A DNA stretch of 64,000 bases from Bacillota bacterium. GTDB lineage: Bacteria; Bacillota_I; Bacilli_A; RF39; UBA660. Under the pieces are notes generated by a model. The model was not told the origin of the DNA. It ran no database searches and saw only the letters and a list, made by a program, of their open reading frames with translations. How positions within the stretch are numbered: position 1 is the stretch's first letter; every line of letters starts with the position of its first letter. The translations under genes were made by a program, and so were the position numbers. Where the stretch lies: contig SVAS01000004.1 in assembly GCA_015059285.1 (NCBI GenBank), positions 28,782 to 92,781 of the forward strand. The letters are read 5' to 3'. Shown here piece by piece: positions 12,721-48,552 of this stretch.

Positions 12721-13752
12721 TTTACCTTAATCGAGTTACTAGCAGTAATAGTAATACTAGCCATAATAGCACTAATAGCAGTACCAGTAATAATGAATAT
12801 AATAACAAGTGCAAGAAAGAGTGCATTTGAAGATACTGCATATGGATTAATAAGTGCTGGGGAAATGTATTATGCTCAGGCTCTATTAGAAAATGGAATG
12901 ACTAGTGATGTAGAGTTCACAATAACAGATGGAGAATTTGTTGGAACAAATAAACTAGAGGTAAAAGGAGCATTACCATCAAGTGGTAGTATTAAAGTTA
13001 CACGAGATGGTAAAGTAGCACTAGCTATTTCAAATGGAGCGATGTGTATCACAAAAGGATACGATGATAGTAAAATTGATCCAGAAGCAGATGTAGATAA
13101 TTGTGTACTACCAGCTGAACCTGCAAAAACACTAAGTGAATTAGCAAAAACAAATGACTTTGCTACAAGTGTAGATGCATGTGCAACAACAGGTACATGT
13201 GCAGTAGGAACAAAGTTTGCAATCGAAGTAGCCCCAGGAAATATCCAAAACTTCTATGTAGTAAGTGATGCTAGTAATAAAGTTACGTTAATCATGGATA
13301 AAAATGTTGATGAAAACACAGTAGCATGGATAACAAAAACAGATTATTTAGCAGCAGGAGGAACAGAAGCAGAATGGGATACAGAATGTGATGAATGTGG
13401 GAACAATAATAAAGGTCCAATAACAGCGTTAAATTACTTAGAAAGTCAAACGTCTAGTTGGACATATATAGCACCACAGGACTATACATTAACAGACAGT
13501 AAATATGGAACGATGACAAGAACAAATGCGCGCGCTAGAATGTTAACAGAAACAGAAGTAAATGCAATAATTAGTAATGATTGGTCATATGGAAATTTAG
13601 CAATGCCACCATATGGATACTGGACAAGCTCTGCTTATGCGGACATTGCTATCAGCGCTTGGCGCGTGTACCGCGTCGGTCGCGTTGACATCGGCGACGT
13701 CATCATTGACGACAGCTACGGTGTGCGCCCAGTTATCGAAATCTCAAAATAA
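12700..13752 (+). CDS. Type IV pilin-like protein with C-terminal CLec-like domain; putative DGR target (pilin 1)
   Basis: Class III signal peptide RRG/FTLIELLAVIVIL; C-terminal YWTSSA...YGVRPVIEISK. Confidence 0.88.
   Translation: MKSKRRGFTLIELLAVIVILAIIALIAVPVIMNIITSARKSAFEDTAYGLISAGEMYYAQALLENGMTSDVEFTITDGEFVGTNKLEVKGALPSSGSIKVTRDGKVALAISNGAMCITKGYDDSKIDPEADVDNCVLPAEPAKTLSELAKTNDFATSVDACATTGTCAVGTKFAIEVAPGNIQNFYVVSDASNKVTLIMDKNVDENTVAWITKTDYLAAGGTEAEWDTECDECGNNNKGPITALNYLESQTSSWTYIAPQDYTLTDSKYGTMTRTNARARMLTETEVNAIISNDWSYGNLAMPPYGYWTSSAYADIAISAWRVYRVGRVDIGDVIIDDSYGVRPVIEISK
13621..13752 (+). repeat. DGR variable repeat VR1
   Basis: Ungapped match to 48421-48552 with 17 differences, all at codon positions 1/2 of NNC/NNT codons; GC-rich in an AT-rich genome. 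Confidence 0.88.
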
Positions 13753-13882
13753 TCATCTAAACTTGGATATTTGTAGTAATGTAATACGAAGTTAGAAATA
13801 AGGTTTTGAAAAGAATGATAATAAGAGCACATGTGTAAGAAATCTAAGATTACTTTAAAAATACGCGATAGCGTATTTTTTT
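13753..13882 (+). repeat. Conserved post-VR region and hairpin/terminator (copy at 48553-48682)
   Basis: Near-identical ~90 bp, then AAAAATACGC-GATA-GCGTATTTTT. Confidence 0.85.
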
Positions 13883-13906
13883 CGGTTTTAGGTAAAAAAA
13901 CATTTT

Positions 13907-13979
13907 TTAGCACTCATATATTGACAATGCTAACATATAATAGTATAATGAAGTAGCAGTCAATAAAAAAGAGTGCTAA
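13907..13979 (+). promoter_or_regulatory. Two CIRCE-like operators flanking the sigmaA promoter of the hrcA-dnaK operon
   Basis: TTAGCACTC-N9-CAATGCTAA (13907-13933), GTAGCAGTC-N9-GAGTGCTAA (13953-13979); TTGACA-17-TATAAT. Confidence 0.88.
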
Positions 13980-13992
13980 AAGAGGTGGTTAA

Positions 13993-14982
13993 ATGCTTAA
14001 TAATCGTCAAAGTGAATTACTTAAGTTAATTGTTGAAGATTATATTAAAACAGCTCGTCCAGTAGGTTCTAAAGCTTTATGTGATATTTTAAATTGTTCT
14101 AGTGCAACAATTAGAAATGAAATGGCATTGTTAGAAGAAAATGGCTATTTAGAAAAAACACATATTTCATCAGGTAGAGTTCCTAGTGAAAAAGGTTATA
14201 GATATTATGTTGATAATATTATGAAACCTAAAGAGTTAACAGGTGAAGATATGTTGAAATTGCAAACAATTTTCAATAATAATTCTTTAATGTTAGAAGA
14301 TTATATTACTAAGAGTATGGAAATTATATCTGAGATGACTAATTTAACGGCTGTTGTTTTGGGTAAATCATCTAAAGAAAATTGTGTTAGTAAAATTGAA
14401 GTTGTTCCGATTAACGATCAAAGTTTAATTGCAATTGTTATAACTGATAAAGGTCATGTTGAACATAGAAATATAGTTGTTAGTGAAAATGTATCTTTAA
14501 CTGATGTTAAACAAACAGTTGATTTAATTAATAAGATGATTATAGGAACACCTATTGATGAAGTTAGTATGAAATTAGAATATGAAGTAAAACCTATTAT
14601 AGCAAGATATGTAAAACAACATGAGGTTTTATATAATGCTTTCTATAGTGCGTTTAGTGATTTTACTAATAACTCTAACATAACATTAAAGGGAACTAAA
14701 AATATTTTGATGCAACCAGAGTTTAATGATACTGAAAAGATTAGACAAATTATTAGTAAGTTTGAAGATAGAGAAATGGTTAGTAGTATTGAATCAGAAG
14801 AAAATGGAGTTAACATTTATATTGGTAGTGAAAATGATTTTGATGATAATGTTACTATTATTAAAGCAAAATATAATTCTAATGGAGAAGAAGGAACTAT
14901 TGCTTTAATAGGACCTAAGAGAATGGAATATGATCGTGTTATATCTTTACTTAATTATATAATGAAAAATATTGGTGCATAG
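13993..14982 (+). CDS. hrcA: Heat-inducible transcription repressor
   Basis: PVGSK, SSATIRNEM, HISSGRVPSEKGYRYYVD, GPKRMEY. Confidence 0.95.
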   Translation: MLNNRQSELLKLIVEDYIKTARPVGSKALCDILNCSSATIRNEMALLEENGYLEKTHISSGRVPSEKGYRYYVDNIMKPKELTGEDMLKLQTIFNNNSLMLEDYITKSMEIISEMTNLTAVVLGKSSKENCVSKIEVVPINDQSLIAIVITDKGHVEHRNIVVSENVSLTDVKQTVDLINKMIIGTPIDEVSMKLEYEVKPIIARYVKQHEVLYNAFYSAFSDFTNNSNITLKGTKNILMQPEFNDTEKIRQIISKFEDREMVSSIESEENGVNIYIGSENDFDDNVTIIKAKYNSNGEEGTIALIGPKRMEYDRVISLLNYIMKNIGA

Positions 14983-14990
14983 GAGGTATT

Positions 14991-15569
14991 ATGAGCGAAG
15001 AAAAAAAATGCAGGTGTCATGAAGGGGAAACTTGTTCATGCGAAGAAGAAACTTGTGAATGTATAAAAGAAGAAAAAAAGGAACAAAACAAAAAGAAAGT
15101 AAAAAAGGATAAACATCTTGATAAATTAAATGAGGCATTTAATAAAATAAGTGAACTAGAAGATAGTTTACTTAGAAGTAAAGCTGATTTTATAAACTAT
15201 CGTAAACGTTTAGAAGATGAACAGGTAAGATTATTTAAATATTGTAATGAAGATTTAGTTAAAGAAATGTTACCTATTATTGATAGTTTAGAAAGATGTA
15301 TAAGTATGGATGATAATAATTTAGATGATGAGGTTTCTAAATATTTATCAGGAGTTAAAATGATATATTGTAATTTAACATCTATTTTAAATAAATATGG
15401 TGTTAAAGATATAGATGGTGTTAATAAACCATTTGATCCAGCATTCCATCAAGCAGTGATGACTGAAAAATGTGATATGGAATCTGGTATGGTAATAGAA
15501 GTGTTACAAAAAGGATATTTACTTAAAGATAAAGTAATTAGACCAGCAATGGTTAAGGTTAGTGAATAG
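14991..15569 (+). CDS. grpE: Nucleotide exchange factor GrpE
   Basis: ADFINYRKR, FDPAFHQAV, QKGYLLKDKVIRPAMVKV. Confidence 0.95.
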   Translation: MSEEKKCRCHEGETCSCEEETCECIKEEKKEQNKKKVKKDKHLDKLNEAFNKISELEDSLLRSKADFINYRKRLEDEQVRLFKYCNEDLVKEMLPIIDSLERCISMDDNNLDDEVSKYLSGVKMIYCNLTSILNKYGVKDIDGVNKPFDPAFHQAVMTEKCDMESGMVIEVLQKGYLLKDKVIRPAMVKVSE

Positions 15570-15584
15570 GAAAGGTGATTATAT

Positions 15585-17408
15585 ATGAGTAAAACAATTG
15601 GTATTGATTTAGGTACAACAAATAGTTGTGTATCTGTATATGAAGGTGGAGAAGCAAAAGTTATTGCTAATCCAGAAGGAAATAGAACTACTCCTTCAGT
15701 AGTAGCGTTTTCTAAAGATGGAGAAATTATTGTAGGGTTAAAAGCTAAAAATCAAATGATTACTAACCCAAATGTAGTTTATTCTATTAAAAGAGATATG
15801 GGAACTGATAAAAAAGTAGAAATTCAAGGTAAAAAATATACTGCTGAAGAAATTTCTGCTATGATTTTAGGAGATTTAAAGAAAACTGCAGAAGCTTATT
15901 TAGGTGAAAAAGTTACTAAAGCAGTTATTACTGTTCCAGCATACTTTAATGATGCTCAAAGACAAGCAACTAAAAATGCTGGTAAGATTGCTGGATTGGA
16001 AGTTGAAAGAATTATTAATGAACCAACTGCTGCAGCTTTAGCATACGGTCTTGATAAACAAGATAAAAATGAAAAAGTATTAGTTTATGACCTTGGTGGA
16101 GGTACTTTTGACGTATCTATTTTAGAACTTGGAGATGGTGTGTTTGAAGTATTATCTACTAGTGGTAATAACCATTTAGGTGGGGATGACTTTGATGAAA
16201 GAGTAATGGACTATTTAGTAGATGAATTTAAACGTGAAAATGCTATTGATTTATCTAAAGATAAAATGGCTATGCAAAGAATTAAAGATGCCGCTGAAAA
16301 AGCTAAAAAAGATTTAAGTGGTATGACTTCAACTGAAGTATCTATTCCATTTATTACTCAAGGTGAAGATGGCCCACTACATTTAAATTTAAATTTAACT
16401 AGAGCTAAGTTTGAAGATTTAGTAGGAGACTTGATTGATTCTACTTTAACTCCTGTTAGAAATGCTTTAAAAGATGCAAAATTAAGTGCTAGTGATATTG
16501 ATAAAGTATTATTAGTAGGTGGATCTACTCGTATTCCTAAAGTTCAAGAAATTATTGAAAAAGAATTAGGAAAAGAACCATCTAAAGGAGTAAATCCTGA
16601 TGAAGTAGTTGCTATGGGTGCTGCTATTCAAGGGGGAGTTTTAACAGGAGAAGTTGATGATATTGTTTTATTAGACGTAACACCACTTTCACTTGGTATT
16701 GAAACTTTAGGTGGTGTAATGACTAAATTAATTGATAGAAATACAACTATTCCAACAAGTAAATCACAAGTATTCTCAACTGCTGCTGATAATCAACCTG
16801 CTGTAGATATTCATGTTTTACAAGGTGAAAGAAGTATGGCAGCTGATAATAAAACTTTAGGACGTTTCCAACTTACAGATATCCCACCAGCACCTAGAGG
16901 AGTACCTCAAATTGAAGTTACTTTTGATATAGATGCTAATGGTATTGTTAATGTTAAAGCTAAAGATTTAGGAACTAATAAAGAACAAGCTATAACTATT
17001 ACTTCTAATACTAGCTTAACTGATGAAGAAATAGAAAAAATGGTAAAAGAAGCTGAAGCTAATAAAGAAGCCGATGAAAAACGTAAAGAAGAAGCTGATG
17101 TTCGAAATGAAGCTGAACAAATGATTTTTACAACTGAAAAATCAATTAAAGATTTAGAAGGTAAAATAGATAGTAAAGATAAAGAAAAAGCAGAAAATCA
17201 AATTAAAGAATTAAAAGAAGCTTTAGAAAAAAATGATATTGAAGATATTAAGAAGAAAAAAGAAGCTTTAACAGAAACTGCTATGGCTATGGCTACTAAA
17301 GTTTATGAAGAGGCTGCAAAACAATCTCAAACTGAACAAACAGATGCTAAATCAGAAGAAACAGATAAAAAAGATGATGTAATTGATGCTGAATATGAAG
17401 AAAAATAA
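15585..17408 (+). CDS. dnaK: Chaperone DnaK
   Basis: [31 protein letters not shown]. Confidence 0.98.
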
Positions 17409-17459
17409 TTAAAAAAGAGGTTCTAGTTATCTAGAACTTTCTTTAAAGAAAGGTTAATT

Positions 17460-19256
17460 ATGGGGAACGTACAAAAAAGAAGAGAAGAAGTAGAAGAGAA
17501 ATATAAATGGGATCTTACCTTAATTTATAAATCTGATGAAAAGTGGTATGAGGATTTAAATATTGTAGATAAAGAAACTGAAAAAATATCTAATTTTAGA
17601 GGGAATATTGTAAATAGCGCTAAAAATTTATTAGATTATATAGAGTTTTCATTAAATTTAGAAAGAAAACTTTATAAGCTATATTATTATGCTCACTTAA
17701 ATTTTGATTCCGATACTACTAATAATAATTATCAAGAAATGAAGGGGAAAGTAGATAATTTATTGTTAAAATATAATGAATTAGATTCATTTTCTACCCC
17801 TGAAATGATGAGTGTTGATTATGATGTTATTAAAAATTTTATAAAACAAGAACACAAATTAGAACAATATGCCTTTTTATTAGAACAAATATATCGTAAT
17901 AAAGAGCATGTTTTATCTAAAGAAGAAGAAAAAATAATATCATCTTTTTCTAATTTGTTAGGTAGTCCAGAAGATGTGTTTGACTCTTTAACTGATTCTG
18001 ACTTGAAGTTTGGAACAATAAAAAATGAAAATGGCGAAGATATTGAACTTACTGAAAGTAATTATACTAAGTTTATTGAATCTGATAATAGAGAAATAAG
18101 AAAAAATGCTTTTGAAAAGTTATTAGGTACTTATTCTAATTATAAAAATACAATTGCTAAAACTTTTTCTTCAAATGTTGAAGTGTTAACTGTTTTGGCT
18201 AAGTTAAGACATTATAATAGTAGTTTAGAAGCATCACTTTTTGATGATAATGTAGATGTTAAGATTTACAATAACTTAATTGATACAATTTCTAATAATT
18301 TAAGTGTTTTATATAAGTATTTTGATTTGAGAAAAGAGGTTTTAAAATTAGATGAATTTCATTTGTATGATCAATATAATGCTTTAGTTCCTAGTTGTAC
18401 GAAAAAATATTCTTTTGAAGAGGCTCGTAAAATTATTATATCCGCATTAAGTGTACTAGGAGAGGATTATGTTGAAATCTTAAATAAAGCTTTTGATGAA
18501 AGATGGATTGATGTTTATAATAATGTAGGAAAAAGAACTGGTGCTTATTCAAGTGGATTTTATGATACTAAACCATATATACTTTTAAATTATGAAGAAA
18601 CTTTCAATAGTGTTTCTACATTAGCTCATGAATTAGGTCATTCTTTGCACACTTATTATTCTTGTAAAAATAATCCATATCAATATTCCCGTTATAAAAT
18701 ATTTGTAGCAGAAGTCGCATCTACTGTAAATGAATTATTATTAGATTTTTATATTTTAAATAATAGTAATGATAATGACGAAAAAAAATATATTATTAGT
18801 GACTTGATGAATTCGTTTAAATCAACAATTTATCGTCAGGTAATGTTTGCTGAATTTGAACGCGATATGCATGCTTTAAAAGAAGAAGGCGGAGTTTTAA
18901 CTAATGAAACTATATCTAATCATTATTATAAACTTAACCAAAAATATTTTGGACCTAACGTGGTAGTTGATGAGTTAATAAAATTTGAATGGGAAAGAAT
19001 ACCTCATTTCTATTATGATTTTTATGTATATAAATATGCAATTGGATTATCTTGTGCATGCTTTATTGTAAGTAATATTTTGAATGGTAAAGAAAATGCT
19101 TTAGAAGATTATAAAAAGTTTTTGAGTAGTGGTGGTAGTGATTATCCGATAAATGAACTTCTAATTGCAAATGTTGATATAACAAGTAGTGAAGTTATTG
19201 AAAGTGCTATAAAAATGTTTGATGATTTAATTAAACAATTTAAAACTTTAAATTAG
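17460..19256 (+). CDS. pepF: Oligoendopeptidase F (M3B)
   Basis: KWDL, GAYSSG, TLAHELGHSLH, FVAEVAST, IPHFY. Confidence 0.92.
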   Translation: MGNVQKRREEVEEKYKWDLTLIYKSDEKWYEDLNIVDKETEKISNFRGNIVNSAKNLLDYIEFSLNLERKLYKLYYYAHLNFDSDTTNNNYQEMKGKVDNLLLKYNELDSFSTPEMMSVDYDVIKNFIKQEHKLEQYAFLLEQIYRNKEHVLSKEEEKIISSFSNLLGSPEDVFDSLTDSDLKFGTIKNENGEDIELTESNYTKFIESDNREIRKNAFEKLLGTYSNYKNTIAKTFSSNVEVLTVLAKLRHYNSSLEASLFDDNVDVKIYNNLIDTISNNLSVLYKYFDLRKEVLKLDEFHLYDQYNALVPSCTKKYSFEEARKIIISALSVLGEDYVEILNKAFDERWIDVYNNVGKRTGAYSSGFYDTKPYILLNYEETFNSVSTLAHELGHSLHTYYSCKNNPYQYSRYKIFVAEVASTVNELLLDFYILNNSNDNDEKKYIISDLMNSFKSTIYRQVMFAEFERDMHALKEEGGVLTNETISNHYYKLNQKYFGPNVVVDELIKFEWERIPHFYYDFYVYKYAIGLSCACFIVSNILNGKENALEDYKKFLSSGGSDYPINELLIANVDITSSEVIESAIKMFDDLIKQFKTLN

Positions 19257-19268
19257 GTGGTGTAGTAT

Positions 19269-20378
19269 ATGAACAAAAGAGATTATTATGAAATATTAGG
19301 CGTTAATAAAAATGCGAGTGAATCTGAAATAAAATCCGCATTTAGAAAACTTGCTAAAAAATATCACCCTGATGTTTCTAAAGAACCTGATGCAGCTGAA
19401 AAATTTAAAGAAGCTCAAGAAGCTTACGCAGTTTTATCAGATGATAATAAAAGAAAACAATACGATCAATTTGGTCATGCTGCATTTTCAAATGGCGCAG
19501 GTGGAGCTGGGTATGATTTTTCTGGTTTTGACTTTTCAGATATATTTGATGGATTATTTGGAGATGGCTTTGGTTTTTCTAACTTTGGATCATTTGGTGG
19601 AAATGCTTCTAAAGCTAGAAAAGGAAGAGATTCTTTATTACGTGTAAATTTAAGTTTTGAAGAAGCTATTAATGGTTGTAAGAAATCTATTAACGTGGAT
19701 GTTATGGATAGTTGTAAAGAATGTAATGGTAAAGGTGGTTTTGATGAGACTACTTGTTCTACTTGTCATGGTAGTGGGTCTGTTACAAGTGAGCAAAGAA
19801 CTATTTTTGGTTCATTTATGACAAAAACTACCTGTCCTAGTTGTAATGGTAAAGGTAAAACTTACGCTAAAACATGTTCCAAATGTCATGGAGCAGGTAA
19901 GGTTAAAACTAATAAAGATTTAGAGGTTAAAGTACCTGCTGGAATTGATACAGGAAATCAACTGCGTCTTGCTGGTAAGGGAGAACCTGGTATAAATGGT
20001 GGACCTAACGGAGATATTTATTTAGAATTTAAAGTTGATAAACATCCAATATTTGTAAGAGATGACATAGATATTTATTTAGAACTTCCAATTACTATTA
20101 CTGAAGCTATTTTAGGATGTAAAAAAGACATTCCAACTTTAACAGGAACTGTTAAATTAACTATACCAGCTGGTAGTCAAAGTGGTGAAAAACATCGCTT
20201 AAGAGGAAAGGGTATTCAAAATGTTAATGGATTTGGTAAAGGGGATATGTATATTATTATTAATGTAGTTATTCCTACTAAATTAACTCGTGATCAAAAG
20301 AAATTAATTGAAACGTTAAGTAAAACTGATTTAGAAACAGAAGAAGTATTTAAAAAATATAAAAAACATACAAAATAA
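19269..20378 (+). CDS. dnaJ: Chaperone DnaJ
   Basis: J domain HPD, G/F region, four CxxCxGxG repeats. Confidence 0.97.
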
Positions 20379-20401
20379 AACTATTGATTTCAATAGTTTT
20401 T

Positions 20402-20614
20402 TTAATTATTATTTAAACCTAGTTGTATATTTTTGATAATAACTTCTTTTAAATCTATATCTGAATTTTTCCACAATATTTCAAAAAAAACTCCTAAACC
20501 AGGTAAAGTTATTTCTTGACTTTCTTCAATAGAAGATTCAATAGAAGCTTTAATTTCACTTATATCCGCATCATTAAAATTGTCTTTAATGCTTTTTCTG
20601 ATATCTATATTCAT
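20402..20614 (-). CDS. sspI: Small acid-soluble spore protein SspI
   Basis: MNIDIRKSI...LPGLGVFFEILWK. Confidence 0.8.
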   Translation of the reverse strand: MNIDIRKSIKDNFNDADISEIKASIESSIEESQEITLPGLGVFFEILWKNSDIDLKEVIIKNIQLGLNNN

Positions 20615-20722
20615 AATTTCTCCTTTCATAATTATAATGTTTTAAATAATAGATTTTTATACAAAACTATTTTCTTTTTTGATAATTTATTATATAATTA
20701 AGATAATAAAGGAGGAATTAAA

Positions 20723-21277
20723 ATGGTACCAGTATTAATTATAATAGGTGCAATTATATTATTACTTATCTTTTATGTAATTGGTGTATATAATGGATTA
20801 GTAAATTTAAGAAATATGGTAAAAGATCAATGGGCTCAAATAGAAGTACTTTTAAAAAGAAGAGCTGATTTAATACCAAATATTGTGGAAACAGTAAAAG
20901 GTTATGCATCTCATGAAAAAGAAACTTTAGAGAATGTAATAAGTGCAAGAAATAAAGCGGTGAGTGCTAATACTTTAGAAAGTGAAATGCAAGCTAATGG
21001 AGAATTAACAAAGGCTTTAGGAAGATTGTTTGCTTTAGCAGAAGCTTATCCTGATTTAAAGGCTAATACTAATTTTATGCAATTACAAGATGAACTTAAG
21101 AATACAGAAGATAAAATTGCTTATGCAAGACAATTTTATAATGATGCTGTATTAAAATATAAAAATAAACTTGAAATGTTTCCATCAAATATAATTGCCA
21201 ATATGTTTGGATTTAAACCAGAACCATTCTTTGAAGCTAATGAAGTGGATAAAGAAGTACCACAAGTTAAATTTTAA
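20723..21277 (+). CDS. lemA: LemA family protein
   Basis: LKRRADLIPN, EAYPDLKAN, ARQFYND, FPSNIIA. Confidence 0.92.
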   Translation: MVPVLIIIGAIILLLIFYVIGVYNGLVNLRNMVKDQWAQIEVLLKRRADLIPNIVETVKGYASHEKETLENVISARNKAVSANTLESEMQANGELTKALGRLFALAEAYPDLKANTNFMQLQDELKNTEDKIAYARQFYNDAVLKYKNKLEMFPSNIIANMFGFKPEPFFEANEVDKEVPQVKF

Positions 21278-21337
21278 AAAGACAGAAATGTCTTTTTTTC
21301 TTTTTTATTTAATGATATTATAATAGTAGGTGATAAT

Positions 21338-23266: not shown

Positions 23267-23299
23267 TAAAAAAATGTTATGAATTTCATAACATTTTTC

Positions 23300-23614: not shown

Positions 23615-23702
23615 AAAAACACTCTCCTTTATTGTTCTAATTAATTATATGCTTTTGTTTATTTTTGGTGCTTACTGTGATATAATTTAAAAAGGTGATA
23701 AA

Positions 23703-30189: not shown

Positions 30190-31188
30190 ATGAAGAAAAA
30201 AGGGTTTACGTTAATTGAGTTACTAGCCGTAATAGTAATACTAGCAATAATAGCACTAATCGCAGTACCAGTTATTATAAATATTATAAGTAGTGCAAGA
30301 GAAAGTGCGTTTGAGGATACTGCATATGGACTAATAAGTGCTGGGGAAATGTATTATGCACAAGAATTATTAGAAAATGGAATGACAAGTGATGTAGAAT
30401 TCACAATTGAAGATGGAAAGTTTGTAGGAGAAAACAAATTGGAAGTTAAAGGCGCGTTACCAACAAATGGTAAAATCAAAGTTACCCGTGATGGAAAAGT
30501 AGCACTAGCGATATCAAATGGAACAATGTGTATAACAAAGGGATACAATGATGGTAAAATTGATCTAGAAGAAGATGTGGATAATTGTGTATTACCAACA
30601 GGAGAACCACAACTAGGCACTTTAGTATATTTAGTAAAAACAAATGATTTTGCCACCACAATTAATGCATGTGCAACAAATGGTAATGAATGTGCACCAG
30701 GAACACCATTTGCGATAGAAGTAGCCCCAGGAGAAGTTAAAAACTTCTATGTAGTAAGTGATGTCGATAATAAAGTCACATTGATTATGGATAGAAACAT
30801 TGGTAATGCAGTAGAGTGGAATACATCAGGAAATAATGCAGACGGTCCAATCACAGTGTTAAATTATTTAGAAAGTCAAACAAGTAATTGGACAAATATA
30901 GCAGCGAAGGACTATACATTAACAGATAGTGTATATGGAACAATCACAAGAGCCAATGCGCGTGCAAGAATGTTAACAGAAACAGAAGCAAATGCAATAA
31001 TTGGCTATGATTGGTCATATGAGAATTTAGATGAAGATGTAGGCCCTTGGGGTTACTGGCTAAGCTCTGCCCATACGAAACTTGCTAGCGATGCTTTGAG
31101 TGTGGGTGTTTACGGTGACATTGACTGCGGTGGCATCGACGCTGGCAACTTTGGTGTGCGTCCAGTAATAGAGATTTCAAAAAAATAA
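30190..31188 (+). CDS. Type IV pilin-like protein with CLec-like C-terminus (pilin 2)
   Basis: KKG/FTLIELLAVIVIL; YWLSSA...FGVRPVIEISKK; NNC/NNT-rich 3' end. Confidence 0.88.
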   Translation: MKKKGFTLIELLAVIVILAIIALIAVPVIINIISSARESAFEDTAYGLISAGEMYYAQELLENGMTSDVEFTIEDGKFVGENKLEVKGALPTNGKIKVTRDGKVALAISNGTMCITKGYNDGKIDLEEDVDNCVLPTGEPQLGTLVYLVKTNDFATTINACATNGNECAPGTPFAIEVAPGEVKNFYVVSDVDNKVTLIMDRNIGNAVEWNTSGNNADGPITVLNYLESQTSNWTNIAAKDYTLTDSVYGTITRANARARMLTETEANAIIGYDWSYENLDEDVGPWGYWLSSAHTKLASDALSVGVYGDIDCGGIDAGNFGVRPVIEISKK

Positions 31189-38410: not shown

Positions 38411-38501
38411 TTCAACGAAAGTTGAATTTTTTTTGTTATCCTGTTTAAAAAGACAAAATATTCATCATTATAATCATAGAATAGAAATGGGAGATGATAA
38501 T

Positions 38502-40814: not shown

Positions 40815-40825
40815 AGAGGAATAAT

Positions 40826-41188
40826 ATGAATAGAAACGAATTATTTAATGATAATTTCTTTAGAAGAAATGATTTATTTAAAGCAGATATTTATGAAAAA
40901 GATAACTTATATAAAATAATATTAGATTTGCCAGGATTTAAAAAAGAAAACATAAGCGTTGAATATAGTAATGGTTATTTAAATATTATTGCTATTCAAG
41001 ATAATAAAATAAATGATGATACTAATTTTATCCACAGAGAAAGATTTTATGGTGAATATAAAAGAACTTTTTATGTGGGATGTATTAATGAAAATAAAGT
41101 TAATGCTAAATATCAAGATGGCACTTTAATTATTGATTTAGAAAAACAAAATGAAAATAATCGTATTAAACAAATAGATATAAAATAG
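40826..41188 (+). CDS. Small heat shock protein Hsp20
   Basis: DLPGFKKENI, RERFYGEYKRTF, AKYQDGTL. Confidence 0.9.
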   Translation: MNRNELFNDNFFRRNDLFKADIYEKDNLYKIILDLPGFKKENISVEYSNGYLNIIAIQDNKINDDTNFIHRERFYGEYKRTFYVGCINENKVNAKYQDGTLIIDLEKQNENNRIKQIDIK

Positions 41189-41288
41189 CCACTTTTAAAT
41201 AAGTGGTTTTTATTTGCATTTATGTTGTACTTCTGTTCTAAATAATAAAAGTATGTATAATAAAACTTGTTAGAATAGGAGTGAGTTT

Positions 41289-42296
41289 ATGAAGAGAAAA
41301 GGATTTACCTTAATTGAATTGTTAGCAGTAATAGTAATACTGGCAATAATAGCGCTAATTGCAGTACCAGTGATAATGAATATAATAAGCAGTGCAAGAA
41401 AGAGTGCATTTGAGGATACTGCGTATGGATTAATAAGTGCAGGAGAGATGTATTATGCAAATGCATTATTAAATGATGGAATGACAGAAGATGCTGAATT
41501 TACATTTAATAATGGAGAATTTGTAGGAGAAAACAAATTAGAAGTAAAAGGTTCATTACCAGAAAATGGTAAAGTAAAGGTTACAAAAGATGGTAAAGTA
41601 ATTGTAGCAGTCAACAATGGTTCTATGTGTGCTAAAAAAAGAGTAGATGATACAAAAGTAAAATTAGAAGAAACATTAGAATATTGTACATTAGAACCAA
41701 CGTTAAAAGAGTTGGCAAAAACAAATGACTTTGCTACAAGTGTAGATGCATGTGCTACAGCAGGAACAACATGTTCAACAGGGACACCATTTGCAATAGA
41801 AGTAGCGCTAGGAGACATCAAAAATTTCTATGTAGTAAGTGATGTAAATAATACTGTAACACTAATCATGGATAGGAATATTGGTGATATGGTAGCATGG
41901 GGAACTTCGCAAGCAAGTGGGCCAATCACCGCTTTAAATTATTTAGAAAGCCAAACAGCAGGATGGACAAATATAGTAGCAAAGAATTATACATTAGCAG
42001 ATGATAATGTTATAAAAGGCTATAATGATATTGTTACGACAAATGTAAGGGCTAGAATGATAACAAAGAGTGAAGCTTTAGGTTTAAAGAAAAATACTTG
42101 GTTATATAGTAATTTGATTCCTGGTACCCCACCATATGGGTATTGGACAAGCACTGCTTATGTGGATTATATTGATGATGCTTATGCTTGGACAGTGGAT
42201 CCGAATATGGATGTAGATCTGAGTGGATGTTCTATTGGAACTAGTGATTGTTATGGTGTCCGTCCAGTAATAGAAATTTCAAAAAAAGATAACTAA
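41289..42296 (+). CDS. Type IV pilin-like protein with CLec-like C-terminus (pilin 3)
   Basis: RKG/FTLIELLAVIVIL; YWTSTA...YGVRPVIEISKK. Confidence 0.88.
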   Translation: MKRKGFTLIELLAVIVILAIIALIAVPVIMNIISSARKSAFEDTAYGLISAGEMYYANALLNDGMTEDAEFTFNNGEFVGENKLEVKGSLPENGKVKVTKDGKVIVAVNNGSMCAKKRVDDTKVKLEETLEYCTLEPTLKELAKTNDFATSVDACATAGTTCSTGTPFAIEVALGDIKNFYVVSDVNNTVTLIMDRNIGDMVAWGTSQASGPITALNYLESQTAGWTNIVAKNYTLADDNVIKGYNDIVTTNVRARMITKSEALGLKKNTWLYSNLIPGTPPYGYWTSTAYVDYIDDAYAWTVDPNMDVDLSGCSIGTSDCYGVRPVIEISKKDN

Positions 42297-42370
42297 TTAA
42301 GTTATCTTTTTTTGAAATTTTAAAAGGGATTTTAATAATGAGTATTGTATATTTTTGTAGGAGGAAATAT

Positions 42371-43816
42371 ATGAGAAAGTTATTTTTATTTTTAATTATT
42401 TTATTTAGCTTTATAAAAGTAGAAGCTAAAGTATATTATAGTGAGTATTCTGATTATGAAGAAGTTTTAGAAAAAGTTGAAGAAACAGATTTATTAAAAA
42501 CTAAAACAGAAGAAAAATATTTGATTTATAAAGAAGATATTACGGAAACATTTTATCCTAGTTACACAGAAGTTACTGATATGATTAAAACAGACGAAAC
42601 AAAAATAGTATCTAGTGAATGGCTAGATAGTGAACCAAGTCAATTACCTGATAGAAATATAATTAAACAACAGTTATATGAATATGAAAGTATGAAAAGT
42701 ATTAGATATATTAAACTTAGTAGTTTAATTAATACTAAATCTACTTTTGATTTATCAGAAATTAGAATCTTAAAAAAAGGTAAGCTAATAGATTTTGATG
42801 TGATTGGTGATAAGGATTATGATATTTTAAAAGATAAAAATTATAATAATTTTATTAGTTTTAATAAGGATGAAGAAATTATTATTGATTTAAAACAAAA
42901 CATTAAAATAGAAGATTTAATGATGACATATCATATTCATATTAAAGATACATCAGATATTTATTTTACTCTTAGTCTTATGGGAGAAGAAAAAGAAAAT
43001 ATATATGCTAGTGCTACTATTTATTCTATTTTGGATACTATCAATGGTAATGATTTTTCTTACCTTATATTTAAAGATCATTTTGATTTAGTTAATCCTT
43101 TATATGATGAAGCTAAACTTAGTGAAGAAAAAGTTTTAGGAACTGAGTTTAATAAAGTTAGATTAGTTACTAAATATAAAACGGAAGATTTATATATTAA
43201 ATATTATAGAGTAGATAGAACATATTTAGATGAATATTATTTAAAACCTCTTGATGGATATTTAATAGATTACGATACTAAAAAAGAGTTTTATTATATT
43301 AAGACAAGAGATAAAGTAGAGATAAAAGAACGTTTAATTATAGATAATTATAATATTAAATTAGAGGATTTTATTTTGAATACAACTGTTGATAATATTA
43401 AAATTACAAGTAATATTAATTATTATAAAAATGGTGAATATGATATTAATTTTATTTTGCCTTTTAAAGTAGTCAAAACAAAAGTCATTGTAGATATCAA
43501 AGAAAATTATTTAAAAATTTTAAAAAAGCAGAATAAGTATTTAAAAGCCTTAGAAGAAGAAAATAGAAAATTATTTATTCAAAATAATGAACTTAATGTA
43601 AAGTTAAAAGAAGTTCTTAAAGATAAAGATGAGGCTATTAATGAAGTAAATGAAAAATTAATCAAATATCAGTACGAAAATAAAAGTTTAAAATCAGATA
43701 AAAAAGAATTGGATGAAGATTTTGAAGAAAAAAGTAATAATAAATTTTTAGTAATTATCCTTTCTATAGTTAGTGCACTTTTTATAACAATTATTTTAAG
43801 AAAAAAGTCGCATTAA
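42371..43816 (+). CDS. Hypothetical exported protein with coiled coil and C-terminal TM anchor
   Basis: AGGAGG RBS, signal peptide, terminal hydrophobic helix plus RKK. Confidence 0.6.
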   Translation: MRKLFLFLIILFSFIKVEAKVYYSEYSDYEEVLEKVEETDLLKTKTEEKYLIYKEDITETFYPSYTEVTDMIKTDETKIVSSEWLDSEPSQLPDRNIIKQQLYEYESMKSIRYIKLSSLINTKSTFDLSEIRILKKGKLIDFDVIGDKDYDILKDKNYNNFISFNKDEEIIIDLKQNIKIEDLMMTYHIHIKDTSDIYFTLSLMGEEKENIYASATIYSILDTINGNDFSYLIFKDHFDLVNPLYDEAKLSEEKVLGTEFNKVRLVTKYKTEDLYIKYYRVDRTYLDEYYLKPLDGYLIDYDTKKEFYYIKTRDKVEIKERLIIDNYNIKLEDFILNTTVDNIKITSNINYYKNGEYDINFILPFKVVKTKVIVDIKENYLKILKKQNKYLKALEEENRKLFIQNNELNVKLKEVLKDKDEAINEVNEKLIKYQYENKSLKSDKKELDEDFEEKSNNKFLVIILSIVSALFITIILRKKSH

Positions 43817-43831
43817 AATAATAACTAGTTT

Positions 43832-43838
43832 TGTCGAA
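43832..43838 (+). promoter_or_regulatory. Putative Spo0A box upstream of spoIIAA
   Basis: Exact TGTCGAA ~50 bp before spoIIAA, a known Spo0A-regulated operon. Confidence 0.55.
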
Positions 43839-43889
43839 TATGAATAATTATTTATTTATGTGTGCTAAATTATATAGGAAGGTGATTAT

Positions 43890-44237
43890 ATGCTAGATAT
43901 TAATATGGAATTTAGAAAGGGTATTTTGTTTATTCGTTTGATTGGTGTGTTAAATGAAAAGACAATTTCTAAACTAGAAGAGGAAGTAACAGAATTGGTT
44001 TCTGAAAATGGAATTAGAAATTTAGTTTTTAATTTAGAAGAAGTTACTAGTATTGATGTTAAAGGTATTAATGCATTACTTAAAAATTATAAAATATGCA
44101 AAAAAAATGATGGTAAGACTTTAGTTTGTAATTTAGATAATTCTTTAGTAAAACATAGAATTTATAATAGCAGATTACTTAAGTATATGTATGAAGCAAG
44201 TGATGAAATAAGTGCTATTAATGTACTTAATTTATAG
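43890..44237 (+). CDS. spoIIAA: STAS anti-anti-sigma factor SpoIIAA-like
   Basis: ILFIRLIGVL..LVFNLEEVTSIDVKGI; precedes sporulation sigma factor. Confidence 0.7.
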   Translation: MLDINMEFRKGILFIRLIGVLNEKTISKLEEEVTELVSENGIRNLVFNLEEVTSIDVKGINALLKNYKICKKNDGKTLVCNLDNSLVKHRIYNSRLLKYMYEASDEISAINVLNL

Positions 44238-44244
44238 GAGGAAT

Positions 44245-44913
44245 ATGACAAAGTTAGATAATCTTGTTTTAGAACATCAAAATTATATATATGGATTAAC
44301 TAAATATTTTGATAATTATTCAAGTAAAGAGGATTTATTTCAAGCAGGGGCTATTGGTCTTATTAATGCTTATGAAAAATTTGATCCAAGTTTAGGAGTA
44401 AAATTTACGACTTATGCTTTTTCTTATATTATTGGTGAGATGAAAAAGTGTGTTAGACAAGAAAGAGATATTAAAGTAGGTAGAAAAATAACTAAAATGA
44501 ATTTGCAAATAGAAAAAGCAAGTATTATACTGTCTCAAAAACTTATGAGAGAACCCAAAACAGAAGAAATTGCTAGTTTTTTAGAAGTTCCAGAATATAT
44601 AGTTTTAGAAGCGCTAAAAACTAAATATAAAATTCAAAGTATTGATGAACCAATTTATAGTGATAGTAAACCAATGTCCTTACATGAAACTATATCATCT
44701 AAATGTGTAGATATAAACACCTTAATTGCATTAAAACAAGAATTGCTTTCTTTAGAAGAACCTGAAAAAAGTATTATGGAGCAAAGATACTTCAATGATT
44801 TAACACAAGCAGAAACTGCTAGTTTACTTGGTCTTAGTCAAGTGCAAGTTTCTAGAAAAGAACAAAAGGTTCTAACATATCTAAGAAATAATTTAATGGA
44901 TAAGGCAAGTTAA
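44245..44913 (+). CDS. sigF: Sporulation sigma factor, SigF/SigG family
   Basis: EDLFQAGAIGL, KFTTYAFSYIIGE, TQAETASLLGLSQVQVSR; spoIIAA/spoVA context. Confidence 0.75.
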   Translation: MTKLDNLVLEHQNYIYGLTKYFDNYSSKEDLFQAGAIGLINAYEKFDPSLGVKFTTYAFSYIIGEMKKCVRQERDIKVGRKITKMNLQIEKASIILSQKLMREPKTEEIASFLEVPEYIVLEALKTKYKIQSIDEPIYSDSKPMSLHETISSKCVDINTLIALKQELLSLEEPEKSIMEQRYFNDLTQAETASLLGLSQVQVSRKEQKVLTYLRNNLMDKAS

Positions 44914-44968
44914 ATATATTTTAACTTGCTTTTATGCTATAATAAATATAGAGAAAAGTAGGTGTTTT

Positions 44969-45388
44969 ATGGATAAAAATTATGCTTTAGAATATTTAAA
45001 TGAAAACGAATTTAGAAAAACCGAAAGAGCTATCAAAAAATATAATATGCTCGCATATAAGAAACTTTTATTTGATTATTATCCGGCTTTAAAAGATGGT
45101 GACTTTAAAGGAGCAGTTGTAAGTAAAAATGAAAAAGAAAAAATTACACAATATGAATTAAAATTACCAACTGATTTAAGTTTTTCTAAAGTTCATGGAG
45201 ATATCACTTTACATTATACTGTTTATGAAAAACAAGGAATAATAATATTAGATAAACTGTCACCTGAAGACATTCTTAAAGAAGGTTCACATAAAGAGCT
45301 TACAACTTATAAAGGTGTTATGGTTTCTAAAAGTCATGCTGAAAAAGATATGTTTAAAATTAATTTATTAAATATGTTAGAAAAGTAA
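44969..45388 (+). CDS. Hypothetical protein
   Basis: ORF with its own TGCTATAAT, RBS and terminator. Confidence 0.6.
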   Translation: MDKNYALEYLNENEFRKTERAIKKYNMLAYKKLLFDYYPALKDGDFKGAVVSKNEKEKITQYELKLPTDLSFSKVHGDITLHYTVYEKQGIIILDKLSPEDILKEGSHKELTTYKGVMVSKSHAEKDMFKINLLNMLEK

Positions 45389-45463
45389 AAAGAATAAAAG
45401 ATTTTTATTCTTTTTTTGTATATAAAAAACAATTTGTCCCATAATAATTCTAGGAGGAAAATT

Positions 45464-45904
45464 ATGGAGAAAAATAAATATAAAGATATAGTTAATCGTC
45501 ATACTCCTAAAGAGAATGTTTTATATAACACAATGATTGCTTTTTTTACAGGGGGATTAATGGGCGTATTAGGACAATTATTAATAGATGCTTATACCTA
45601 TTATTTTAGCATTCCAACTAGTCAAGCTTCGGTATTTATGATTGTTACTTTAATTTTTGTTGGATGTTTACTTACTTGTTTAGGTTTTTTTGATAAATGG
45701 GTTAATTTTTGTAAATGTGGGCTTATAATACCAATTACAGGATTTGCTCATGCTATGATGAGTGCTGCTTTAGAATATCGTAAAGAAGGTTTGGTTACAG
45801 GAATAGGAGCAAACATGTTTAAACTTGCTGGTTCAGTTATCATTTTTGGAGTAGTTAGTGCCTATGTATTTGGATTACTTAGACTTATTTTATTTGGGTG
45901 CTAA
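45464..45904 (+). CDS. spoVAC: Stage V sporulation protein AC
   Basis: AFFTGG, IPITGFA, ALEYRKEG..GIGANMFKLAGSVI. Confidence 0.9.
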   Translation: MEKNKYKDIVNRHTPKENVLYNTMIAFFTGGLMGVLGQLLIDAYTYYFSIPTSQASVFMIVTLIFVGCLLTCLGFFDKWVNFCKCGLIIPITGFAHAMMSAALEYRKEGLVTGIGANMFKLAGSVIIFGVVSAYVFGLLRLILFGC

Positions 45905-46894
45905 ATGACTTTTAAATATAATAATGTATATATAAATGATACTGGAACCGTAACTGGACCCAATGAAGCAAAAGGACCTTTGAGTAAATATTTTGACAAA
46001 AGTTATCAAGACTTTTATTTTGAACTTCCTACTTGGGAACAAGCTGAAAGTAAGATGATACAAGATTGTGTAGATATTGTTTTAAATAAAGTAGATAGAA
46101 CTAAATTTGATATTGATTTATTTATATCAGGGGATTTATTAAATCAAATTTCTGCTTCTAATTTTGCTGCCTCTAGTTTAAATATTTCTTATTTAGGAAT
46201 TTACAATGCATGTGCTACAAGTGTAGAAGGCTTGATTTTAGCTTCTAATATGATTGAAGCAAAACAAATTAAAAACTGTATAACATGTGCTTCTTCACAT
46301 ACAAACGCTGCTGAAAAACAATTTAGATATCCTGTTGAATATGGTGGACCTAAACCAAAAACAACAACATTTACTACTACTGGAGCAGCTTCTGCCTATT
46401 TATCTTACAACAAAAAAGGAATTAAAGTAGAAAGCGCAACTTTAGGCAGTGTTGTTGATGCGGAAGTTAAAGATGCATTCCATATGGGGGCTGTTATGGC
46501 ACCTGCCGCAGCGCAAACAATTTATAAACATCTTTTAGAAACAAAAAGAGAAGCTGATTATTATGATTTAATTTTAACAGGAGATTTAGGAAGATATGGT
46601 AAAAATATTTTAAGAGAATGCATTCAAACTGAATATGGTATTACTTTAAAAAATTATGATGATACAGCATGTATGATTTTTGATTTAGAAAAACAACCTG
46701 TATATGCAGGAGCTAGTGGACCTGCTTGTGCCCCACTAGTTACATATGGTTATATTTTTGATTTGATGAAGAAGAAAGATTTAAAAAGAGTATTACTAGT
46801 TGCTACAGGTGCTTTACATAGTCAAACTACAGTAAACCAAAAACTTACTATTCCTAGTATTGCTCATGCTATTAGTTTGGAGGCGATAGAATGA
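45905..46894 (+). CDS. spoVAD: Stage V sporulation protein AD
   Basis: GDLLNQ, AEKQFRYPVEYG, MGAVMAPAA, TGDLG, IPSIAHAI. Confidence 0.93.
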   Translation: MTFKYNNVYINDTGTVTGPNEAKGPLSKYFDKSYQDFYFELPTWEQAESKMIQDCVDIVLNKVDRTKFDIDLFISGDLLNQISASNFAASSLNISYLGIYNACATSVEGLILASNMIEAKQIKNCITCASSHTNAAEKQFRYPVEYGGPKPKTTTFTTTGAASAYLSYNKKGIKVESATLGSVVDAEVKDAFHMGAVMAPAAAQTIYKHLLETKREADYYDLILTGDLGRYGKNILRECIQTEYGITLKNYDDTACMIFDLEKQPVYAGASGPACAPLVTYGYIFDLMKKKDLKRVLLVATGALHSQTTVNQKLTIPSIAHAISLEAIE

Positions 46895-47241
46895 TATATT
46901 TAAATGCGTTTTTATTTGCTGGTATAGTATGTGCAATTGGACAATTAATTTTAGATAATACTAAACTAACACCGGGACATATTACTACAATATTTGTTGT
47001 AGTAGGAGCTTTTCTAGATATATTTAATTTATATGATAAGTTTATTTTATGGGCAGGTGGAGGAGCATTAGTTCCAATTACTAGTTTTGGTCACTTATTA
47101 ATTCACGGTGCTATGGAAAGTGCTGGTAGTTATGGGATTATGGGACTTGTTATGGGTATGTTTAATTTAACTGCTTCTGGAATTTGTTCTGCGATTATTT
47201 TTTCTTTCTTTTTATCTTTAATATTTAAACCTAGAAGCTGA
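46891..47241 (+). CDS. spoVAE: Stage V sporulation protein AE (AEb type)
   Basis: ICAIGQ-like VCAIGQLILD..LTPGHI, GALVPITSFG, FKP. Confidence 0.9.
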   Translation: MIYLNAFLFAGIVCAIGQLILDNTKLTPGHITTIFVVVGAFLDIFNLYDKFILWAGGGALVPITSFGHLLIHGAMESAGSYGIMGLVMGMFNLTASGICSAIIFSFFLSLIFKPRS

Positions 47242-47282
47242 AACAAGAATAAAAGTATTCTTGTTTTTTAGATAATTAATGT

Positions 47283-47508
47283 ATTTATGTTATAGAAACC
47301 ATTTCTAATATAGTTTTATATATAATAAAAGTGTCAATATCAAAAAATAAAAAGAAATGTTATTGACAGTAAAATATTTATGTTATAAAATAATTCTAGA
47401 ACAATACGTTATACAAAGTAAATAAAAGTATAAAAGTATAAAAGAATAAAAAATTGTTCAAGATAAGAAAGAAGGAGTGGAAAGAGAATGAAATCAAAAA
47501 GAAGAGGG
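47283..47508 (+). repeat. Copy of the pilin upstream/promoter region at 12503-12720
   Basis: Near-identical, with an extra GTATAAAA unit. Confidence 0.9.
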
Positions 47509-48552
47509 TTTACATTGATCGAGTTACTAGCAGTAATAGTAATACTAGCAATAATAGCCCTAATCGCAGTACCAGTAATAATGAATATAATAAGTAGTGC
47601 AAGAGAAAATGCTTTTAAAGATACTATGTATGGAGTAATAAAAGCAGGGGAATTATATTATGCAGAACAATTATTAACAGCAGATGGGATGACAGAAGAT
47701 GTGACATTTACATTTAGTGAAGATGGAGTAAGTCCATCAGGATTAAGCATAAAAGGAAGTCTGCCAACAAGTGGAACAATGACAATAACAAAAGATGGTA
47801 AAATACTCTTAAATGCAACAGATGGAACATATACAGCAACAAAAGATGAAATTAGTACAGAAATAAATGTAGTTAAGGGTGGAGAATTAGAAGAAACACC
47901 AACTACACCTGAAACACCTGCAGTAAAAACATTAAGTGAATTAGCAAGAACCAATGACTTTGCTACAAGTGTAGATGCATGTGCAACAAGCGGCACATGT
48001 GTGGCAGGAACCAAATTTGCGATAGAAGTAGCGCCTGGAGATATCCAAAATTTCTATGTAGTAAGTGATGCTAGTAATAAAGTTACGCTAATCATGGATA
48101 AAAATGTTGATGAAAACACAGTAGCCTGGATAACAAAATCAGACTACTTAACAGCAGGAGGAACAGAAGCAGAATGGGATACAGAATGTGATGAATGTGG
48201 AAACAATAATAAAGGACCAATCACAGCATTAAACTATTTAGAAAGTCAAACAAGTGGATGGACAAATATAGCACCACAGGACTATACATTAACAGATAGT
48301 AAATATGGGACAATAACAAGAACAAATGCGCGTGCTAGAATGTTAACAGAAACAGAAGCAAATGCAATAAGTAGTAACGATTGGTCATATGGAAATTTAG
48401 CAATGCCACCATATGGCTATTGGACAAGCTCTGCTGTTGCGGGCATTGCTGGCAGCGCTTGGTTCGTGTACGGCGTCGGTAGCGTTGACTCCGGCAGCGT
48501 CGACATTGACGGCGGCTACGGTGTGCGCCCAGTTATCGAAATCTCAAAATAA
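47488..48552 (+). CDS. Type IV pilin-like protein with C-terminal CLec-like domain; putative DGR target (pilin 4)
   Basis: RRG/FTLIELL; C-terminal half near-identical to pilin 1; YWTSSA...YGVRPVIEISK. Confidence 0.88.
   Translation: MKSKRRGFTLIELLAVIVILAIIALIAVPVIMNIISSARENAFKDTMYGVIKAGELYYAEQLLTADGMTEDVTFTFSEDGVSPSGLSIKGSLPTSGTMTITKDGKILLNATDGTYTATKDEISTEINVVKGGELEETPTTPETPAVKTLSELARTNDFATSVDACATSGTCVAGTKFAIEVAPGDIQNFYVVSDASNKVTLIMDKNVDENTVAWITKSDYLTAGGTEAEWDTECDECGNNNKGPITALNYLESQTSGWTNIAPQDYTLTDSKYGTITRTNARARMLTETEANAISSNDWSYGNLAMPPYGYWTSSAVAGIAGSAWFVYGVGSVDSGSVDIDGGYGVRPVIEISK
48421..48552 (+). repeat. DGR variable repeat VR2
   Basis: Counterpart of 13621-13752 (offset 34800). Confidence 0.88.

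Follow-up and report, generated by a model that had tools for sequence, protein, structure and literature searches.

Why should two pilin-like genes of one bacterium diverge in the ordinary way upstream and yet differ, at their very 3' ends, only by substitutions that change amino acids? This question is raised by a stretch of 64,000 nucleotides (hereafter the window) from a Bacillota bacterium (GTDB lineage Bacilli_A; RF39; UBA660; assembly GCA_015059285.1, contig SVAS01000004.1), which corresponds to G000:C5:28782-92781, where G000 is the source genome and C1-C5 are its five contigs (1,037,214 bp, 26% G+C, completeness 95.6%). We present evidence that the two 3' ends are variable regions (VRs) very probably rewritten by a single diversity-generating retroelement (DGR) located on another contig, which would diversify the target gene beside it (the cis target) and at least five remote pilin-like paralogs with predicted lectin-type heads, two of them in the window.

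The two segments, window 13621-13752 and 48421-48552, are the 3' ends of two open reading frames (ORFs) on the forward strand, remote target gene 1 (12700-13752, 350 aa) and remote target gene 2 (47488-48552, 354 aa). They align without gaps and differ at 17 nucleotides spread over 11 codons, namely, in the coordinates of gene 1, at 13636, 13637, 13643, 13651, 13652, 13663, 13664, 13672, 13681, 13690, 13691, 13696, 13697, 13702, 13703, 13712 and 13714. All 17 differences lie at codon position 1 or 2, and all 17 are non-synonymous. Over the 493 nt located 5' of the segments the two genes differ in 40 codons, 28 of them synonymously and 12 non-synonymously, a pattern of ordinary divergence. The G+C fraction of the segments is 0.61 and 0.66, compared with ~0.36 in the 300 nt upstream and 0.26 genome-wide. 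A preliminary description of the window had drawn attention to the gapless alignment, to the synonymous changes just upstream and to the GC-rich segments in an AT-rich genome, and our recount confirmed its figure of 17 nt in 11 codons.

That description had also reported no template repeat (TR), reverse transcriptase (RT) or Avd within the 64 kb and had proposed that one distant DGR acts in trans. A search of the whole genome gave just this arrangement: the window holds none of the three, and the only DGR of the genome lies on contig C1 (C1:24.2-27.8 kb, minus strand), with the order MutS-like ORF, Avd, RT, TR and cis target. The Pfam RT model found a single RT in the contigs (C1:26085-26801, minus strand), an intact ORF of 400 aa that scores 66 bits with RVT_1 (cut-off 29.6). 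The group II intron RT model gave 99 bits against a cut-off of 300, so that the enzyme is not a group II maturase, and the motifs IGNMSSQ and YMDD, which we take to be diagnostic for RTs of this kind, are visible in its sequence. Avd (121 aa) was recognised by Pfam bAvd (PF22296; 49.7 bits, cut-off 40), while its score with NCBIfam DivGenRetAVD (58 bits) is below the cut-off of 80. The ORF upstream of Avd (146 aa; MutS_I, 30 bits, cut-off 20.6) corresponds, by its sequence, to the MutS-like (MSL) accessory class in the excerpted text of the survey of Wu et al. (PMC5758913). The RT, Avd and MSL ORFs are all intact.

The TR (C1:25729-25625, minus strand) is a non-coding, AAC-rich repeat of 105 nt that starts 83 nt past the RT stop codon, and C1:25625-25729 is the sole TR-like match in the genome. 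It contains 37 adenines, and its codons (16 AAY, 3 GAC and 1 TAC) allow ~1.7e21 peptides per target. Between it and the cis target (C1:24232, minus strand, 357 aa), which belongs to the same family as the window genes, lie ~350 non-coding nt with a terminator-like hairpin at their end. All 17 differences between VR1 and VR2 fall on the 37 adenines of the 105-nt TR (hypergeometric p = 9.7e-10). The template that had been inferred from the window alone matches the real TR essentially base for base, except for its first 7 nt, which are outside the TR homology; a TR with A at every variable site was thus found beside a DGR RT and avd, and both window genes are indeed pilin-like as had been stated, each with a prepilin-type N-terminus. 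The DGR and the window are on different contigs, so the VR1 and VR2 genes are trans (remote) targets, at a distance, measured from the contig ends, of at least ~66 kb (VR1) and ~43 kb (VR2); other targets are on C3 and C4.

We aligned the TR to the 39 genomic places that encode a GxRPxIE C-terminus. VR1 (13628-13732, forward strand, 105 nt homologous to the TR) has 21 mismatches, every one of them at a TR adenine, with none of the 68 non-A positions changed (p = 2e-12). VR2 (48428-48532, forward strand) has 26 mismatches, again all at A (p = 2.9e-16). Two VRs on C3 behave in the same way, with 0 non-A and 21 A mismatches (C3+42810) and 0 and 24 (C3+131808), and they are followed by the C4 copy (1 non-A, 21 A), the cis target (2 and 19), C3+305832 (3 and 24) and C3+64357 (5 and 26). 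The other 31 of the 39 carry 9-36 non-A mismatches each, so that, judged by this alignment, only six or seven paralogs in the genome match the TR. It should be noted that proximity to the TR does not go with the best maintenance: the cis target has two non-A mismatches, and in four remote targets there are none. The window itself contains two further members of the pilin-like family that are not current DGR targets, both on the forward strand: 30190-31188 (15 non-A mismatches; C5+59946) and 41289-42296 (26-27 non-A mismatches; C5+71048). The G+C of the VR equivalents falls with divergence from the TR (rho -0.89); the non-A positions of the TR are themselves rich in G+C, which makes this correlation partly circular and no more than illustrative.

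At the 3' end of VR1 (13720-13745, forward strand), a GC-rich block of 13 nt (13720-13732) is identical to the TR and the next 13 nt are unlike the TR flank. The same block recurs in every good VR, and TR and VR sequences part right behind it, as in the pair of initiation of mutagenic homing sites (IMH in the VR, IMH* in the TR) expected of such an element. With A-restricted TR/VR differences, a DGR-type RT, Avd and IMH/IMH* all present, the sequences mark this as a genuine DGR.

The homology among the targets does not stop at the IMH. Its flank (14 nt) is fully matched in 6 of the 39 paralogs, and beyond the stop codon of target 1 there is a conserved non-coding element in the 3' untranslated region (UTR) (13753-13855, forward strand), which together with 13733-13752 forms a unit of ~125 nt, ~105 nt of it past the stop codon. 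The second copy, IMH flank included, is at 48533-48656 (forward strand) and is 95% identical to the first. When the genome was searched with window 13733-13860, we found exactly seven copies, each directly 3' of a TR-matched VR. The paralogs bearing them have 0, 0, 0, 0, 1, 2 and 5 non-A mismatches, and the element is absent from all of the other 32 paralogs, among them C3+305832 (3 non-A mismatches; its protein is 88% identical to target 1) and the two non-target genes in the window. A role as a target-recognition tag is plausible for this candidate, by analogy, because retrohoming of the BPP-1 DGR needs a cis element downstream of the VR, as the extracts of the BPP-1 study report (PMC3240598).

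Whether the ~125-nt element really takes part in targeting is, in our judgement, evenly balanced against the possibility that it has no such role and is either a passenger of duplication and gene conversion or an ordinary 3' UTR or terminator-proximal regulatory element. Forty relatives were searched for the element and no convincing copy was found, the closest being one weak match of 40 nt in G018 (E 4.5e-4), and the genome of the same genus, G001, gave no match. The paralogs are also mosaic: the 207 nt upstream of the C4 target, start codon included (C4:108340-108134), match the leader of the cis target (C1:25466-25261) at 99% identity, and in its middle part the C4 gene is of the other protein subgroup, indicating that these genes are recombination mosaics and that recombination among the copies is frequent. 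Moreover, C3+305832 has only three non-A mismatches even though it lacks the element. On the other hand, the element keeps 87-98% identity between the two protein subgroups, where the coding DNA immediately 5' of the VR falls to 33-60%, and it is found in seven of the seven best TR-matched paralogs (C3+305832 apart) and in 0 of the 32 others. The VR of the element-less C3+305832 seems to be frozen, with 0 and 1 VR differences in two full-length natural variants that differ from it by 12-16 residues in total, and BPP-1 likewise depends on a cis element beyond the TR/VR homology in the excerpts of Guo et al. 2011 (PMC3240598).

The predicted fold of the element belongs with the evidence against a role in targeting. 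RNAalifold and single-sequence folds predict a long imperfect hairpin in which the start of the GC-rich IMH is paired ~105 nt downstream, but it is only modestly better than shuffled sequences (z about -0.5 to -3.3; z for DNA -0.57, -0.51, -3.16, -2.33 and -1.45), one copy folds differently and 1 of 49 pairs is compensatory; the significance of the predicted structure is modest and we do not claim it. In Rfam, window 13500-14000 gave only a chance-level match to isrK (14.9 bits against 50), so that no known RNA family covers the element. Target 1 is followed by a terminator-like hairpin with a T run (13861-13881, forward strand; helix 148-174 of the consensus fold). This hairpin and its counterpart at 48661-48681 have 4-nt loops, GATA and GAAA, that fit the GRNA consensus for loops of phage DGR cruciforms (PMC3240598). 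They were considered as BPP-1-like cruciforms and rejected, being ~130 nt from the VR and missing in the C4 and cis copies.

Both target proteins are predicted to begin with a prepilin N-terminus and to continue through a pilin-like module into a C-terminal head resembling a C-type lectin, with the VR as the last ~34 residues of the head. They are 76% identical to each other and their C-terminal 200 aa are near-identical outside the VR. The prepilin motif was recognised by PF07963 (N_methyl; 35.8 bits against 21.2) and TIGR02532 (IV_pilin_GFxxxE; 33.6 against 16.3); this cleavage/methylation motif (G/FTLIE) is the sole domain that Pfam and NCBIfam recognise in the targets, and it was present in 66 of 66 homologs scanned. 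A sequence profile search of the PDB matched the type IV pilins MshA, PilE1, PilA and geopilin over residues 1-77 only and returned no match for the head at E <= 1. In the AlphaFold model of target 1 (pLDDT 90.7), a helix of 55 residues (10-64) is followed by a beta domain (71-129) and an alpha/beta head (146-350), and the head modelled alone reached a pLDDT of 96.1 and a pTM of 0.92.

When the full-length model was compared with known structures by Foldseek, the only match with E < 0.001 was 9qa6, an IgA peptidase of Thomasclavelia ramosa (E 4e-4, prob 1.0), for which the Foldseek output does not give the aligned part; the N-terminal domain of 9qa6 is described in the excerpted report as C-type-lectin-like, resembling the C-terminal domain of Legionella Lcl (PMC12237041). 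Weak matches were obtained to C-type lectins, animal ones among them (6puv, 4ezm, 1egg, 4j6q and 3bdw; prob ~0.1), and to the Clostridioides difficile minor pilin PilW (prob 0.69). Among the 66 homologs, Pfam gave DUF6273 in 22 and Lcl_C (formerly DUF1566) in 8, all below the curated cut-offs, and ESM Atlas placed the head with DUF6273 clusters at 0.96. The models thus suggest a modular type IV pilin with a head of the C-type lectin (CLec) kind, like Lcl_C/DUF1566/DUF6273, although the fold assignment is not conclusive. The C-type-lectin assignment comes from one moderate Foldseek match and from profile matches under threshold, and a family of 37 paralogs could instead consist of membrane-anchored surface lectins.

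The size of that family was obtained from two motifs: 45 ORFs of the genome carry the prepilin motif, 39 the GxRPx C-terminus and 37 both. These 37 make up 3.69% of the genome, and four of them are inside the window. Their N-terminal 30 residues are nearly invariant among 10 aligned paralogs and the 66 homologs, and the targets among them split into two protein subgroups of ~62% identity. Public data hold more than 4,765 homolog clusters, none bearing a name. Contigs C2 and C4 both begin (C2:1-190 and C4:1-190) within near-identical prepilin N-termini; the assembly therefore breaks within this family, and further members may be missing from the contigs. The genome encodes a prepilin peptidase (Peptidase_A24; C3:315422-315748), PilB-like T2SSE ATPases (C3:316124-317260, C3:288655-289485 and C4:72546-73076) and the PilC-like platform protein T2SSF (C3:314077-315060 and C3:290735-291911).

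It is possible, but rather unlikely, that the DGR works as we propose on proteins that are not pilus subunits, the prepilin N-terminus serving for export and anchoring and the products being pseudopilin-like or membrane-anchored variable surface lectins. Such a role would suit the genomic setting, since each window target stands alone in a housekeeping neighbourhood (target 1 precedes HrcA and GrpE; target 2 follows SpoVAD, SpoVAC and a sigma factor and precedes UvrA) and lies outside the pilus operon at C3:314-317 kb. It would also suit the number of 37 paralogs, far above that usual for minor pilins, and the DGR target of a relative, G019, which joins the same type of C-terminus to an ordinary signal or transmembrane (TM) N-terminus and so indicates that the head is used with other anchors. 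The near-invariance of the first 30 residues, however, fits packing in one filament core, the modelled 55-residue alpha1 helix with its small beta domain and the weak match to PilW resemble a pilin, and a complete pilus machinery is encoded despite the strong reduction of the genome. Incorporation into a pilus, a location at the pilus tip and binding of a ligand are parts of our reading that we infer.

Some neighbours of the targets deserve mention in their own right. SpoVAD and SpoVAC/SpoVAEB are encoded at window 45905-47241 (Pfam E 7e-120 and 3e-30) and a sigma-70-family factor at 44212-44913, and from its gene content this lineage, with a reduced genome of 1.04 Mb, may form spores. Directly 3' of target 2, a DUF7666 protein (169 aa, window 48809-49318) overlaps the start of uvrA.

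We then asked what the VRs look like in other samples, comparing members of 90%-identity protein clusters from other assemblies with the G000 proteins. Of the 21 positions at which P0131 departs from the VR2 protein, 19 are in the VR region, the final 48 columns of the alignment; for P0048 and the C3+41775 protein the corresponding counts are 19 and 16. Seven proteins (P0006, P0126, P0127, P0131, P0048, P0141 and P0145) have other VR peptides with no change at non-A codons. Variants of the non-target paralogs in the window have one difference (P0146, from 30190-31188) or five and one (P0147 and P0148, from 41289-42296), none of which is in the C-terminus. These comparisons indicate that diversification of the VRs has occurred in nature.

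Metagenomic records were less informative. Part of the window occurs in 24 public runs from 15 studies, all animal gut or faeces metagenomes by their records. Four of them were examined over window 12000-14600, where the assembled contigs are short and ~40 paralogs cross-map; the variant letters over VR1 in these contigs are those of VR2, and they gave no usable within-sample variation. In one run (X2), the sole contig over VR1 (window 13579-13821) has VR2-like letters and another flank beyond the stop codon; it could come from a strain with another paralog that bears a VR2-like VR.

Among relatives, RT homologs were found in 13 of 24 genomes of the same family and in 2 of 16 more distant ones. 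The genome of the same genus, G001, has MSL, Avd and RT followed by a prepilin-type target, and 14 of its 15 TR/VR mismatches are at A. The TR of this genome lies in frame within the 3' end of the RT ORF (L137, G001:C8 5965-7143, minus strand), giving the protein an N-rich, GVRP-containing tail. When G001 was searched for remote targets, only the cis VR gave a good match (86%), with two weak ones at 71-72%. In G002 a prepilin-type target of 670 aa is located upstream of MSL-Avd-RT, and in G016 and G007 MSL-Avd-RT is at contig ends. Thus the cassette appears from these genomes to be a lineage-wide theme, and the state with many remote targets was observed only in G000.

Several observations speak against continual diversification by one DGR. 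VR1 is unaltered in P0129 and P0130, which differ at 11-12 other positions, and the VR of C3+42810 is kept, with 0-1 differences, in P0143 and P0144, which have 11-19 outside it. The VR of C3+131808 (G000:C3:131704-131808, locus L007/L129) has a gap of 6 nt relative to the TR, which may be an indel that arose during or after homing, and the cis target and the C4 copy carry two and one non-A mismatches. Since some strains keep their VRs unchanged, the diversification has been episodic. That there is no DGR activity at all, the element being a relic, or recombination and positive selection among pilin paralogs having acted with a likeness to the TR left over from a dead element, is highly improbable: the decayed, non-A-diverged VR equivalents of 31 of the 39 paralogs, the identical VRs of some strains and the uninformative public contigs would agree with it, but four VRs with 0 of 68 non-A positions and 21-26 of 37 A positions changed are not produced by point selection or recombination, the three cassette ORFs are unbroken, seven proteins from other samples combine VR peptides changed only at A-codons with near-identical scaffolds, and the sister species G001 repeats the pattern with a TR of its own.

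We therefore return to the single DGR acting in cis and in trans. According to this model, the TR RNA would be reverse-transcribed with random misincorporation opposite adenines, and the cDNA would overwrite the 3'-terminal VR in the cis target and in five or more remote paralogs, of which the window contains two. The targets would then be cleaved by the prepilin peptidase of the genome and serve as variable adhesins carried on type IV pili or at their tips. Paralogs would enter or leave DGR control by keeping or losing the IMH and the ~125-nt downstream element. A wider scheme, which we offer as a tentative proposal and consider, taken as a whole, improbable, has two tiers: the ~37 interchangeable modular lectin-headed pilins would form a 'germ-line' repertoire, a shifting subset of which is hypermutated in trans by the one DGR; the ~125-nt cis tag, which starts in the IMH and may form the long hairpin, would license homing; and gain or loss of the tag would move genes in and out of the subset, leaving the decay series of fossil VRs.

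To our knowledge, DGRs are the only prokaryotic system of targeted protein hypermutation, and what they diversify shows which interactions face the fastest selection. Here a genome of ~1 Mb spends 3.7% of its length on pilin paralogs with predicted lectin heads, together with a DGR that would rewrite six or seven of them, which points to pilus-mediated attachment (to host glycans, other microbes or phage-exposed surfaces) as the central adaptive problem of this lineage, which is uncultured and lives in the gut. DGR-diversified pili would thereby extend from the type V pili of Bacteroides to type IV-like systems and to monoderm Bacilli. The close paralogs with and without the downstream element, with active-looking and frozen VRs, amount to a natural experiment on target recognition; they could define what makes a trans DGR target and could be useful for engineering tools for targeted diversification. 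Type IV pilins with a C-terminal adhesive module exist in another monoderm, Streptococcus sanguinis, in PilB (vWA module) and PilC (lectin module). In S. sanguinis each of these modular pilins has one gene, located in the pil locus and not known to be hypermutated, whereas G000 has 37 dispersed paralogs, some of them apparently under DGR control.

Parts of this picture are familiar. In the excerpts of Wu et al. 2018, remote and multiple targets, MSL accessories, DUF1566/CLec2 VRs and the IMH are all already known; they list seven non-adjacent targets in Treponema and, over distances of more than 100 kb, 29 targets of 10 DGRs (PMC5758913). Remote DGR targets being an established phenomenon, that part of the preliminary description is not new. 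In the literature searched we found no description of DGR targeting of type IV pilin-like proteins, though the supplementary tables of surveys may list such cases; the exception is an excerpted source that mentions in passing, as one of the rare domains in which a VR lies, a pilin domain of GspG type (PMC11661182). The words pilin, pilus and pili are absent from the main text of Roux et al. 2021 (PMC8144416). What is new is that the targets are type IV pilin-like, that they belong to a family of 37 in which former VRs form a decay series, and that a conserved element lies 3' of the TR-matched VRs.

A close relative in composition is the DGR of Legionella pneumophila (LdtA; 'Architecture D', MSL and avd), the example given in the same excerpts for the DUF1566-type VRs, 'category d' or CLec2 (PMC5758913). 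Like the G000 system it is chromosomal and not phage-borne, and combines a MutS-like ORF with Avd and RT. In both, the VR is the C-terminal part of a domain of DUF1566/Lcl_C type, predicted in the case of G000, with a GVRP-type motif at its end. According to that text, LdtA is a lipoprotein of the cell surface, whereas the G000 targets are anchored by a prepilin-type N-terminus and a pilin module; G000 further differs in having at least six targets on four contigs, a 37-member family and the order MSL-Avd-RT-TR-target. The Treponema denticola DGR (TvpA) resembles G000 in that one DGR serves several non-adjacent targets in trans, but as excerpted it has an HRDC accessory (Architecture C) rather than MSL (PMC5758913), and its targets are not pilin-like.

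A further parallel is provided by the type V pilus-tip DGRs of Bacteroides, which, in the portions of the preprint available, are likewise gut systems with CLec heads (predicted in G000) on pilin modules and many pilin paralogs per genome (bioRxiv 10.1101/2024.11.15.621889). Type V pili are unrelated to type IV pili, being assembled by strand exchange from lipoprotein precursors in Bacteroidota, while G000 combines a class III signal and a type IV pilin system with trans targets in a reduced-genome member of the Bacilli; those portions of the preprint do not mention 'type IV' or 'remote'. Finally, the downstream element invites comparison with BPP-1, where, in the excerpted study, TR and VR share the GC-rich start of the IMH, after which the VR has a sequence of its own, and where cis sequence beyond the TR/VR homology accompanies functional targets (PMC3240598), both as in G000. 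In BPP-1, 24 bp downstream suffice, containing an 8-bp GC-rich stem with a GRNA loop located 4-34 bp from the VR; the unit in G000 is ~125 nt long and AT-rich, and its predicted hairpin is long and imperfect and includes the IMH itself.

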